The notes under the pieces are model-generated. The model ran no database searches, was not told the DNA's origin, and was given only the letters and a program-made list of their open reading frames with translations. DNA of 64,000 bases from Escherichia coli (lineage in GTDB: Bacteria > Pseudomonadota > Gammaproteobacteria > Enterobacterales > Enterobacteriaceae). The translations under genes and the position numbers were made by a program. The DNA lies in the NCBI RefSeq assembly GCF_044647545.1, contig NZ_CP172818.1, one strand, 5' to 3'. Within the stretch, counting starts at the first letter, position 1. Each line of letters opens with the position of its first letter. Below, piece by piece: positions 9,946-32,539 of the stretch.

Positions 9946-10256
9946 ATGCTCTTCATCGAAACGGAAATTTTTACTGAAGATGTTCAAAAACTGCTGACCG
10001 ACGATGAATTCAGTCGTTTTCAGTTTTTCCTGGCCTTGAATCCTGACTATGGTGAGGTAATACCTGAAACTGGTGGGTTAAGAAAGGTTCGATGGGTGTC
10101 AGGAGGAAGGGGAAACGTGCTGGTGTCAGGGTTATTTACTTTCATCAGGTTAAACATTATGAGATCAGATTACTGCTTATTTATCGTAAGGGTATTAAAG
10201 ATAATATCTCTCCCCAGGAAAAAGCAATGCTCCGGTTGTTAAATACGAGGTGGTAA
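9946..10256 (+). pseudogene. HigB/RelE-like type II toxin, inactivated by a 1-nt deletion in an A-run at ~10113-10116
   Basis: ORF 9946-10242 turns to nonsense after GGRG; shifting +1 at the A-run restores KRAGVRVIYFHQVKHYEIRLLLIYRKGIKDNISPQEKAMLRLLNTRW ending at TAA 10254-10256, 0 nt before the antitoxin ATG. Confidence 0.6.
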
Positions 10257-10547
10257 ATGGATAAGGCACTTTTTGAGCGGTTGACTCACAGCATGGCCCA
10301 GATGAATGAAATTATTGAAGGAACGCGACAGCCTTCGCGGACTTTTGAAGTTGATGCTATGAAAATCAAAGAAATACGCCGCGCTTCAGGGTTGTCACAA
10401 TCTAAATTTGCCGATCTTATTTCTGTAAGCGTAGACACGTTGCGTAACTGGGAGCAGGGGCGACGTTCGCCGACCGGGCCTGCAAAGGCTTTGCTGCGAG
10501 CGATTGCCAATGATCCGCAACATGTGCTGCAAGCACTTAACCGTTAG
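10257..10547 (+). CDS. XRE-family HTH antitoxin-like DNA-binding protein (HigA-like partner)
   Basis: 96 aa ORF; HTH region IRRASGLSQSKFADLISVSVDTLRNWEQGRRSP; immediately downstream of the toxin remnant. Confidence 0.65.
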   Translation: MDKALFERLTHSMAQMNEIIEGTRQPSRTFEVDAMKIKEIRRASGLSQSKFADLISVSVDTLRNWEQGRRSPTGPAKALLRAIANDPQHVLQALNR

Positions 10548-11150
10548 AGGCATGGTTATGCCATACAGAAAGCACCAGCATTCAGAACTCCTGTGAAAGC
10601 GGCGTAGTGCCACCTGCTCAGGAGTTTTGCTATGACCCGTAATCAGTGCTGACCGTTGCCACCCTATGATGCGATTAAAAAAACTCATCGTCGCGCCGAT
10701 GATTGACGTCAATGCTATCGGATGATACCGGGGGTGTTCCAGAAAGATCCAACTTTCCCGAACTGTTACCAACAAAATTATAACGATGAGCAAGTTAAGA
10801 CCGGTTGGTAGCAGTACTGACCGGTCTGTGATGGATGATTAATTTCACCTTAAATCCGGGTGCTGTTAGGATGCTGACATTTTTCGGCTACACCATTCAG
10901 ATTATGCAAATAAAGATCCAATCAAAAAATAAACATCCCTGTATATAATATATTTATAGCACCCATATCTCATCCTGGGCGATAACCCAACCATTTTTGA
11001 TTAACAAATGAAACAACTGCAACGTTCTTATTATTTCTGGAAAACGTCTCGCAAAAACAAAACAGCATGCAAAAATCCGCTTTTTTTAAATGATTTTTCG
11101 GCGTAATTTTCGCACATACATTAATGAGTAATATATGTAAGGTATTGGTA

Positions 11151-11369
11151 ATGGCGATGAATACGGTTTTTCTTCATTTATCAGAAGAGGCAATTAAACG
11201 GCTGAACAAGCTTAGGGGCTGGCGTAAGGTTTCACGATCTGCAATTTTACGCGAAGCGGTTGAGCAATATCTGGAGCGGCAGCAATTTCCGGTGCGTAAA
11301 GCAAAGGGTGGCAGGCAAAGGGGGGAGACAGTAGTTGTTGATGATCAGTGTAAGGAGCATAAGGAATGA
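11151..11369 (+). CDS. Small ribbon-helix-helix (CopG-like) protein, 72 aa, yiiE/yiiF family
   Basis: ORF track 11124-11369; trimmed to ATG 11151 to give 72 aa; N-terminal VFLHLSEEAIKRLNKL resembles RHH beta-strand/helix. Confidence 0.55.
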   Translation: MAMNTVFLHLSEEAIKRLNKLRGWRKVSRSAILREAVEQYLERQQFPVRKAKGGRQRGETVVVDDQCKEHKE

Positions 11370-11578
11370 CAAAAAATTTATTATTCTTGAATATAAAAAC
11401 CAGATGCCCTTATTCTGGTATTAATACAAGGCTGTTTTACTTGAACTTATAATAACTGCAACTGTTACATCATATCTGGAAAACGCCTCGCGAAATACGA
11501 GAGTTTGGAATAGCAGGTGTCGTCATACCCTATGAACTGTAATCCGGGCGACCAGCGCCACCCGGAAAACGTCAGAGA

Positions 11579-29463: not shown

Positions 29464-29750
29464 AATGTGATCCTGCTGAATTTCATTACGACCAGTCTAA
29501 AAAGCGCCTGAATTCGCGACCTTCTCGTTACTGACAGGAAAATGGGTCATTGGCAACCAGGGAAAGATGAACGTGATGATGTTCACAATTTGCTGAATTG
29601 TGGTGATGTGATGCTTACCGCATTTCCTGAAAATTCACGCTGTATCTTGAAAAATCGACGTTTTTTACGTGGTTTTCCGTCGAAAATTTAAGGTAAGAAC
29701 CTGACCTCGTGATTACTATTTCGCCGTGTTGACGACATCAGGAGGCCAGT
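29464..29750. promoter_or_regulatory. Divergent rhaBAD / rhaSR control region
   Basis: 287 bp AT-rich intergenic region between divergent rhaB and rhaS; individual RhaS/RhaR/CRP sites not resolved by eye. Confidence 0.5.
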
Positions 29751-30587
29751 ATGACCGTATTACATAGTGTGGATTTTTTTCCGTCTGGTAACGCGTCCGT
29801 GGCGATAGAACCCCGGCTCCCGCAGGCGGATTTTCCTGAACATCATCATGATTTTCATGAAATTGTGATTGTCGAACATGGCACGGGTATTCATGTGTTT
29901 AATGGGCAGCCCTATACCATCACCGGTGGGACGGTCTGTTTCGTACGCGATCATGATCGGCATCTGTATGAACATACCGATAATCTGTGTCTGACCAATG
30001 TGCTGTATCGCTCGCCGGATCGATTTCAGTTTCTCGCCGGGCTGAATCAGTTGCTGCCACAAGAGCAGGATGGGCAGTATCCGTCTCACTGGCGCGTTAA
30101 CCACAGCGTGTTGCAGCAGGTGCGACAGCTGGTTGCACAGATGGAACAGCAGGAAGGGGAAAATGATTTACCCTCGACCGCCAGTCGCGAGATCTTATTT
30201 ATGCAATTACTGCTCTTGCTGCGTAAAAGCAGTTTGCAGGAGAACCTGGAAAACAGCGCGTCACGTCTCAACTTGCTTCTGGCTTGGCTGGAGGACCATT
30301 TTGCCGATGAGGTGAATTGGGATGCCGTGGCGGATCAATTTTCTCTTTCGCTGCGTACGCTACATCGGCAGCTTAAGCAGAAAACGGGACTGACGCCTCA
30401 GCGTTACCTGAACCGCCTGCGACTGATGAAAGCTCGACATCTGCTACGCCACAGCGAGGCCAGCGTTACTGACATCGCCTATCGCTGCGGATTTAGCGAC
30501 AGTAACCACTTTTCGACGCTTTTTCGCCGAGAGTTTAACTGGTCACCGCGTGATATTCGCCAGGGACGGGATGGCTTTCTGCAATAA
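29751..30587 (+). CDS. rhaS: AraC-family activator of rhaBAD and rhaT
   Basis: 278 aa ORF with C-terminal AraC HTH. Confidence 0.9.
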
Positions 30588-30660
30588 CGCGAATCTTCTC
30601 AACGTATTTGTACGCCATATTGCGAATAATCAACTTCGTTCTCTGGCCGAGGTAGCCACG

Positions 30661-31509
30661 GTGGCGCATCAGTTAAAACTTCTCAAAGATGATTTTTTTG
30701 CCAGCGACCAGCAGGCAGTCGCTGTGGCTGACCGTTATCCGCAAGATGTCTTTGCTGAACATACACATGATTTTTGTGAGCTGGTGATTGTCTGGCGCGG
30801 TAATGGTCTGCATGTACTCAACGATCGCCCTTATCGCATTACCCGTGGCGATCTCTTTTACATTCATGCTGACGATAAACACTCCTACGCTTCCGTTAAC
30901 GATCTGGTTTTGCAGAATATTATTTATTGCCCGGAGCGGCTGAAGCTGAATCTTGACTGGCAGGGAGCGATTCCGGGATTTAGCGCCAGCGCAGGGCAAC
31001 CACACTGGCGCTTAGGTAGCGTGGGGATGGCGCAGGCGCGGCAGGTTATCGGTCAACTTGAGCATGAAAGTAGTCAGCATGTGCCGTTTGCTAACGAAAT
31101 GGCAGAGTTGCTGTTCGGGCAGTTGGTGATGTTGCTGAATCGCCATCGTTACACCAGCGATTCGTTGCCGCCAACATCCAGCGAAACATTGCTGGATAAG
31201 CTGATTACCCGGCTGGCGGCCAGCCTGAAAAGTCCCTTTGCGCTGGATAAATTTTGTGATGAGGCATCGTGCAGTGAGCGCGTTTTGCGTCAGCAATTTC
31301 GCCAGCAGACTGGCATGACCATCAATCAATATCTGCGGCAGGTCAGAGTGTGTCATGCGCAATATCTCCTCCAGCATAGCCGCCTGTTAATCAGTGATAT
31401 TTCGACCGAATGTGGCTTTGAAGATAGTAACTATTTTTCGGTGGTGTTTACCCGGGAAACCGGGATGACGCCCAGCCAGTGGCGTCATCTCAATTCGCAG
31501 AAAGATTAA
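30661..31509 (+). CDS. rhaR: AraC-family activator of rhaSR
   Basis: ORF track 30550-31509; trimmed to GTG 30661 ([11 protein letters not shown]) giving 282 aa. Confidence 0.8.
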
Positions 31510-32539
31510 TTCGCCATGCCGATGCCGACGATGTTAGCGGCGACAATAATCACCACACAACCGAGGCTCAACACCGTTACCGGACGGCGTCCTGCATTGT
31601 TCCACTCTTTCAGCACCAGCCCGACGATACCGCCGCACAATACATAGAAGCTCATATGCAGCATCCAACTGATGTAGTCATACTGCGCCGGAATGCGGGC
31701 GTGGCCCCAGGCATAGAAAAAGAATTGCAGATACCACATCAACCGCCCAGTGCTGAGAGTAACACATTGTGAATGATCAGCGGTTTTGCCAGCGAGAAGT
31801 CGGCTTTTAGCGACAAATCTTTCACTTTTGCCAGACGAATGAAGCAGAAACCGAGGTTGATGATCGCGCCGCCTCCCATGATGACAACATAGCTTGGCAG
31901 AGCGACATACAGTGGATCGACGCCCAGTGCGGCAGCGGCTTCATGCATCGGTTTTGCGGCGTTCATCGCAAAGGACATCCCGGCAGAGAAAATGCCGCAC
32001 ATCACCGCCAGCACCAGCCCTTTTTTCAGGTTGAACTCTTCGGCTTTAATGCCCATTTTGCGCTCTTTCAACTGCCCGGCGCGAGTCACAATCCCTACAC
32101 CAATCAGCGCCACCAGAACGCCGAGCAACGTCATGCGTCCGCCTTCGGTATTAATCAGAACATCGAAATTGCCGTTGATAATTGGCGTCATCAGCGTACC
32201 AACAATCAACGTAATGCCAATGGCGATGCCAATTCCCATCGACATGCCGAGATAACGCATGGTCAGGCCGTAGTTGATATTACCGATCCCCCACATAGCG
32301 CCGAACAGAAAAACAGGCAGCAGCGTAGAGAGACTAAACGAGCTGTAATACGCCCAGAAATTCGGTAGTAACAGGGCGCTGATGGCCCACGGCAGAATAA
32401 TCCACGAAACAATCCCACCGACTGACCACATGGTTTCCCATGACCATTTTTTTACTTTTTTGAACGGCGCGTAAAAACAGGCTGCACTGGCCGCGCCGAT
32501 CAAATGCCAAAATATCCCCATCGTAATCGCGTTACTCAT
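31506..32539 (-). pseudogene. rhaT: L-rhamnose-proton symporter, split by a 1-nt deletion at ~31741-31742 (run of three shortened to two)
   Basis: N-terminal ORF 31739-32539 (266 aa) ends ...LLSALGG-stop; C-terminal ORF 31506-31742 continues (L)[12 protein letters not shown] in the +1 frame; one extra base would give a continuous 344 aa protein. Confidence 0.75.

Follow-up and report, generated by a model that had tools for sequence, protein, structure and literature searches.

The stretch of DNA analysed here (hereafter the window) comprises 64,000 nucleotides of contig NZ_CP172818.1 in the Escherichia coli assembly GCF_044647545.1. Its open reading frame (ORF) layout and similarity searches identify it as the segment of the E. 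coli chromosome that runs from yihR through the fdo, frv and rha operons, cpxRA, glpFKX, hslVU and priA to metL. Two genes in the window carry single-base frameshifts, a gene for a HigB-2-family toxin (9946-10256, plus strand) and rhaT, the gene for the L-rhamnose/H+ symporter (31506-32539, minus strand), and the window also holds a fragmented alpha/beta-hydrolase gene, a damaged array of repetitive extragenic palindromic (REP) elements and a long purine-rich tract. The first-pass annotation had noted that both frameshifts are one-base contractions of short homopolymers and had read this shared signature as raising the possibility of sequencing error. Our alignments agree on the form of the lesions, since a run of three bases is reduced to two in each gene. 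The two frameshifts are nevertheless different in origin, and the short-homopolymer pattern that they share is a coincidence.

The closest relatives among 5,426 complete RefSeq genomes of E. coli form a group of about 60, which includes ST648, FDAARGOS_497, MS6198, ECONIH1 and IMT16316, and FDAARGOS_497 (NZ_CP033850.1) served as the reference for the window comparison. This genome is typical of its clade, as the remaining top matches cover the same span of 24,707 bp with near-equal scores. Judged by sequence similarity, the source strain belongs to the clade of strain ST648 or is very closely related to it. There are zero differences from the reference at positions 1-8893, 11510-24252 and 59299-64000, and between 26722 and 59291 the only difference is a single intergenic single-nucleotide polymorphism (SNP). 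This one SNP and the lack of an rhs island apart, every private change is located in one of three patches, here called patch A (8894-11509), patch B (24253-25143) and patch C (26424-26721). Together the patches sum to 3.8 kb of the 64 kb, and elsewhere there is one private change per approximately 60 kb. Outside the patches, about 59 annotated coding sequences of the reference are identical and intact in the window, which bears out the earlier count of roughly 60 other genes of the expected length.

The rhaT frameshift lies outside the patches and is shared with the clade. Its frame of 344 codons is broken after codon 266, at 31743-31744 (minus strand), where GG is left in the place of the GGG of intact alleles. 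On the sense strand, the window reads GGC GGT TGA, as compared with GGC GGG or GGC GGA followed by TTG ATG in four intact alleles (E41-1, K-12 DH1, CFSAN064036 and AH04). The lesion leads to an immediate TGA stop at 31739-31741, such that translation ends after ...LLSALGG and 78 of the 344 residues are removed. The contraction is accordingly from G3 to G2 on the sense strand, and not from T3 to T2 as had been proposed; a change from GGTTTG to GGTTG was rejected upon alignment to real intact alleles, as GGT TTG occurs in none of those sampled.

The segment of 1,301 bp around rhaT is 100% identical in at least 12 independent complete genomes, and a probe of 81 bp with the lesion at its centre has an identical counterpart in 59 of 5,419 complete genomes, while the other 5,360 span 82 bases at the probe, that is, have one base extra. 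In genomes of the ST648 clade, including the reference, the gene carries the PGAP/RefSeq label "frameshifted." Furthermore, 2,167 blocks of public assemblies contain the exact RhaT product of 266 amino acids, and most of them have contigs of the size obtained with short reads. The same lesion is thus present across the clade and the gene is intact in the outgroups, as is characteristic of an inherited, lineage-specific pseudogene. Because the identical allele occurs in 59 independently sequenced genomes and its product in 2,167 blocks, the rhaT frameshift is not a sequencing error but a real mutation that has been passed down in the clade of strain ST648. It is implausible that all of these genomes and blocks derive from one propagated erroneous template, given the different laboratories and hosts. 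The independent confirmation of the lesion that the first-pass annotation had called for is hence already available in the public records. We suggest that one G was lost from GGG, once, and that the shortened allele was then inherited by the clade.

Clade-specific natural lesions in rha genes have been documented in other lineages of E. coli (PMC10132054). The pseudogenes in clonal complex 119 of Shiga toxin-producing E. coli, with 1-bp frameshifts in rhaR and rhaA and in-frame indels in rhaT and rhaB, likewise represent small indels in rhamnose genes that have become fixed in a clade, whereas the gene and site affected here, GGG to GG at codon 266 of rhaT, are different (PMC10132054). We found no report in the literature that links the ST648 clade to a rhamnose phenotype. 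The gene, which is already flagged in RefSeq, is usable as a real marker pseudogene of the clade.

The frameshift in the toxin gene shows another distribution. The toxin ORF, 9946-10242, terminates out of frame, whereas the end expected of the intact gene is at 10256. The frame is broken at codon 54, where the window has AA at 10107-10108 (plus strand) and all other genomes have AAA, so that GGAGGAAAGGGG in the intact gene of FDAARGOS_497 aligns with GGAGGAAGGGG in the window; the contraction had initially been described as A4 to A3, and the alignment corrects this to A3 to A2. The gene additionally contains three clustered substitutions at 10203, 10206 and 10208. The A2 allele occurs in 0 of the 2,636 genomes with the toxin gene, whose sole difference from the window over 81 bp is the extra A. 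The allele was also absent from metagenome contigs, a comparison of low power since even the intact allele was found on only three contigs. In a lookup of exact products, the intact protein of 103 amino acids was recorded in 59,063 blocks and the frameshifted product of 98 amino acids was not on record. By these comparisons, the toxin frameshift is private to this sequence.

The assignment of the toxin to the HigB-2 family comes from a sequence search against the PDB, in which residues 2-99 of the intact 103-residue protein matched HigB-2 chains with E-values from 1.5e-19 to 1.5e-18, in support of the "higB-like" label that it had been given before. In Pfam and NCBIfam no family matched the toxin above threshold, and the Pfam RelE family gave only E = 0.0045, which is under the cutoff. 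The toxin gene is located upstream of an intact antitoxin gene, nadS (10257-10547, plus strand), which encodes a HigA-like protein with a helix-turn-helix (HTH) domain. It has one private substitution, at 10469, which is synonymous, and its product matched NCBIfam NadS with 60.7 bits (cutoff 60) as well as Pfam HTH_3. The two genes meet at TAAATG, in which TAA is the toxin stop codon and ATG the antitoxin start codon. The locus thus has the features of a HigB-2-type module, namely a toxin homologous to HigB-2 and the RelE superfamily, encoded upstream of an HTH antitoxin in one operon. Both in the homology of the toxin and in the toxin-first gene order it would resemble the HigB-2/HigA-2 modules, as known for HigB-2 of Vibrio cholerae (PDB 5JA8, 5JA9, 5JAA). 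It differs from them in that the antitoxin is NadS by NCBIfam, in that the toxin falls under the Pfam and NCBIfam thresholds, and in that the frame is broken at codon 54 in the window.

Upstream of the toxin gene, at 9909-9923, there is a cluster of seven private changes (one insertion and six substitutions), located 23-37 bp upstream of the start codon in what is likely the promoter or ribosome-binding region. All 2,636 genomes with the toxin gene lack this cluster.

Patch A, which surrounds the toxin gene, contains a 154-bp deletion, 17 substitutions and 11 further gap openings, some of them in intergenic DNA, by which 19 bases in all are gained or lost, and it ends with the last deletions at 11504-11509. 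This amounts to approximately 29 events in 2.6 kb, and the substitutions are grouped at 9909-9923, 10203-10208 and 10741-10753. Since only about 0.04 background mutations would be expected in a segment of this size, the toxin frameshift almost certainly belongs to whatever process produced the patch. Mismatches and gap openings stand at 17:12 in patch A, whereas natural divergence in this region gives 93:3 and 92:3 (p ~9e-7). Across the patch, the nearest genome reaches 97.4-98.9% at best, and the variants are absent from the divergent natural alleles in metagenomes (L008-L010).

The large deletion, at 8894-8901, is flanked by GTAG microhomology and brings the fabY stop codon directly up against internal sequence of the alpha/beta-hydrolase gene, with the loss of the intergenic region and the last 91 bp of the gene. 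An apparent single-base insertion at 8897 was discarded as an alignment artefact of this deletion. The remnant of the hydrolase gene (Abhydrolase_3; 8898-9716, minus strand) lacks these 91 bp at its 3' end and has in addition six indel events and one substitution, which leave fragmented ORFs; in the reference, the gene is intact and encodes 302 amino acids with a Pfam match. Downstream of nadS, at 10741-10753, two G to A changes, the loss of AT and a change from TTG to AAC are all private, and where the clade has an imperfect palindrome with GAATTC at its centre they leave another short inverted repeat, GAAAG...CTTTC. This variant was not found in the representative genomes of GTDB.

Patch C (26424-26721, plus strand) is located inside the array of REP elements, organized as bacterial interspersed mosaic elements (BIMEs), between rhaD and rhaA (26352-26735, plus strand). 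The array consists of 4.4 units of 92 bp, as compared with 2.4 in the reference, owing to an extra tandem copy of 184 bp, which may reflect genuine variation in copy number or may itself belong to the artefact proposed below. Within the patch there are one substitution, no insertions and 24 deletions of a single base each, which affect 15 T, 8 G, 1 C and no A. The density of the deletions climbs in the 5' to 3' direction, until at 26722 the flawless sequence resumes. The loss is strongly base-specific: the stretch 26660-26721 lacks 13 of 18 T but retains all 57 other bases (p = 7e-11).

Patch B (24253-25143, plus strand) begins with single-base deletions, chiefly of G, continues with the purine tract and finishes with the insertion of TT at 25142. 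Between 24446 and 24526, 12 of 18 G are lost, as compared with 2 of 77 other bases (Fisher p = 3e-9). The purine tract (24526-25116, plus strand) consists of 591 bases, 81% of which are A or G, and it takes the place of a 1,437-bp reference segment with a gene for a RafY-like carbohydrate porin. In genomes of the ST648 clade, a gene for a RafY-like glycoporin of 464 amino acids (reference-segment positions 25379-26773; Pfam Porin_8, E = 3e-154) is situated between frvA and rhaM.

The first ~235 bases of the tract are a collinear, pyrimidine-depleted copy of the 5' region of the porin gene, in which many of the remaining positions are A or G. The longest common subsequence (LCS) of the two is 201, as compared with 173 +/- 2.6 for shuffled sequences (z = 10.5), and the alignment shows the deletion of 40 C and 31 T as against 10 A and 17 G. 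It is for these ~235 bases only that collinearity with the porin sequence is demonstrated. For the entire tract and the 1,437-bp segment, the LCS is 554, against 539-552 for shuffles, a measure that saturates when one sequence is much longer than the other, and the tract shares no more k-mers with the porin segment than shuffled sequences do. No match to the tract was found in the representative genomes of GTDB. The collinearity suggests that the purine tract is not foreign DNA but a garbled copy of the porin gene.

Taken across the three patches, the variants were absent from all four collections in which they were sought, namely the 5,426 complete genomes, the GTDB representatives, the metagenome contigs and the gene-product index, and no source or donor was identified in them. 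In patches B and C the damage grows along the plus strand and is followed by an abrupt return to perfect sequence. The private changes are dominated by indels and sharply bounded, as would be expected of a local artefact of low-quality consensus or assembly. We therefore favor the hypothesis that the rhaT lesion is inherited whereas the toxin frameshift and the three patches represent non-biological corruption of the sequence record, and we place the probability of this interpretation at roughly 0.7. Localized corruption of the record is the most likely explanation for the toxin frameshift, the damage to the hydrolase gene, the decay of the REP elements and the purine tract alike. One possible route is that low-quality consensus, from a single read or left unpolished, entered the assembly at places that good reads did not cover; another is damage to the record at a later time. 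The strain itself would then probably have an intact HigB-2 toxin, an intact hydrolase and porin, and normal REP elements. Residual patches of unpolished or low-quality consensus in otherwise accurate bacterial assemblies are likewise private, rich in indels and localized to tandem repeats and accessory DNA of low GC content, with an abrupt recovery of the sequence.

Several observations weigh against this interpretation. It is the distribution and the spectrum of the differences that we observe, and the artefact mechanism and the platform that we infer from them. We know of no sequencing platform with exactly such a loss of only T or only G, and both this loss and the purine-only garbling are unlike the textbook homopolymer profiles of 454, Ion Torrent and nanopore sequencing. 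The strain is genuinely distinct from those in the database, as discussed below, and some of the private differences could hence be real. Patch A is also unlike patches B and C in style, with its insertions, its clusters of substitutions and its microhomology-flanked deletion, and the last of these looks more like a real deletion than like an error in base calling. Finally, the lesions in patch A spare nadS and yiiE, as selection predicts, with a chance of about 0.09 under random placement, which we consider a weak hint of selection at most.

The main rival reading is a mixed origin, in which patches B and C are artefacts and patch A is real, with a frameshifted toxin gene, a broken hydrolase gene and the 154-bp deletion leaving an orphan antitoxin. 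Such a patch might be a decayed allele of the hydrolase-HigB2/NadS islet that was recombined in from an unsampled lineage, or it might have decayed in situ. We regard this as a serious but distinctly less probable alternative, perhaps one chance in a handful. The microhomology at the ends of the deletion fits well with a real event, as does the fact that the toxin and hydrolase genes are hit while yiiE is intact and nadS has only its synonymous change. The loss of a toxin with retention of its antitoxin is the tolerated direction of decay in toxin-antitoxin systems, and it is this direction that would be seen here; moreover, the length of the patch, 2.6 kb, would suit a recombination tract in E. 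coli. What speaks against a real patch A is the nature of the changes: the hydrolase gene has one substitution against six indel events and a truncation, and the patch-wide ratio is 17:12 where natural divergence of this locus would give about 31:1. A donor-like allele was not found in the 5,426 genomes, the three divergent metagenome alleles, the GTDB representatives or the product index, and since the flanks match the clade at 100% identity, in situ decay would call for a rate that is locally about 700 times higher.

A broader version, that all private lesions are real and that the accessory DNA of this strain (the hydrolase/toxin islet, the porin gene and the REP array) is in rapid, localized and deletion-dominated decay, seems to us improbable. 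It would account for the location of all three patches in accessory or non-coding DNA with the neighboring core genes untouched, and it agrees with a strain that is naturally distinct also in the absence of the rhs island. Yet we know of no mutational process by which 13 of 18 T would disappear within 60 bp while the 57 other bases all stay in place, nor of any that turns a gene of 1.4 kb into a string with 81% purines that is still collinear with the gene. There is no synonymous divergence in the approximately 60 kb of flanking sequence, and a single SNP in this sequence leaves no time for decay in situ. The one-directional gradients of damage and their abrupt ends are likewise difficult to reconcile with natural decay.

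The idea that both small lesions are miscalls of homopolymer length by an error-prone chemistry, and that both genes are really intact, has very little left in its favor. Both lesions are indeed one-base contractions of runs of three, and the toxin allele is private, as this idea would predict. Of the bases, 16% are in runs of at least three, and if two deletions were placed uniformly, the chance that both hit such a run would be about 2.7%. Homopolymers are, however, also preferred sites of genuine single-base indels (PMC5854121), for which reason the homopolymer signature cannot separate error from mutation. For rhaT, the idea is already refuted by the 59 complete genomes and 2,167 assembly blocks in which the allele is reproduced, and it is for the toxin alone that the lesion is unreproduced in relatives.

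With regard to the remaining private changes, a homopolymer-prone chemistry should fail in the long runs first and should leave indels that are concentrated in runs and scattered along the window, neither of which is seen. Of the 53 private deleted bases, 27, 21, 4 and 1 belong to runs of length 1, 2, 3 and 4, with no enrichment in runs over a background of 54%, 30%, 11% and 3% (6% for runs of at least four). Outside the patches, the comparison with the close reference revealed no altered length among 2,879 runs of at least three bases, 233 of at least five and 77 of at least six. Since the deletions are not enriched in runs and no long run outside the patches is altered, a homopolymer-prone chemistry is not supported as an explanation, and neither is the conclusion of error from the shared signature. 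We give equally little credence to the thought that the patches are real and record a locally targeted, one-strand and base-specific deletion process acting on the porin gene, the BIME array and the HigB-2 islet with the core unchanged.

The practical consequences are a matter of curation, in that they amount to a sensible caveat and not to a discovery. The first-pass annotation had made any biological reading of pseudogenes, REP decay and purine tract conditional on confirmation from the reads; this caution is well placed for the private patches, although on other evidence than homopolymer context, and it is misplaced for rhaT, for which no confirmation at the read level is needed. No biological interpretation should be given to the apparent pseudogenes in the patches (toxin, hydrolase and porin), to the REP decay or to the purine tract, and they are best kept out of all counts for pseudogenes or for repeat evolution until the reads confirm them. 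Comparison with close relatives separates inherited from private lesions far better than homopolymer context does.

A few observations concern the rest of the window. Between rpmE and yiiX, at 59292-59298, the window has a natural empty site, TGTAATTTTGGTCGTATTACC, as in SMS-3-5. FDAARGOS_497 has at the same site a 7.4-kb island with rhsC, ybfB, an RHS fragment and IS1, there are insertions at this site in other clade genomes too, and no genome of the clade without an insertion between rpmE and yiiX was found in the database. The empty site implies that the window comes from a genuinely distinct strain and is not a copy of a genome in the database. Strain 500111 was considered as a closer relative and rejected, as its slightly higher score comes from an IS1 insertion with its target duplication and not from shared variants; its toxin and hydrolase genes are intact. 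The SNP mentioned above is at 34803 in the intergenic region between kdgT and yiiM, where the window has C and the clade T, and it is the sole private difference outside the patches and the rhs site. Lastly, fdoG (14052-17102, minus strand) appears as two ORFs, 14052-16466 and 16515-17102, where the reference annotates one intact coding sequence of 3,051 bp. This split probably reflects an in-frame TGA codon for selenocysteine, and fdoG is not a pseudogene.

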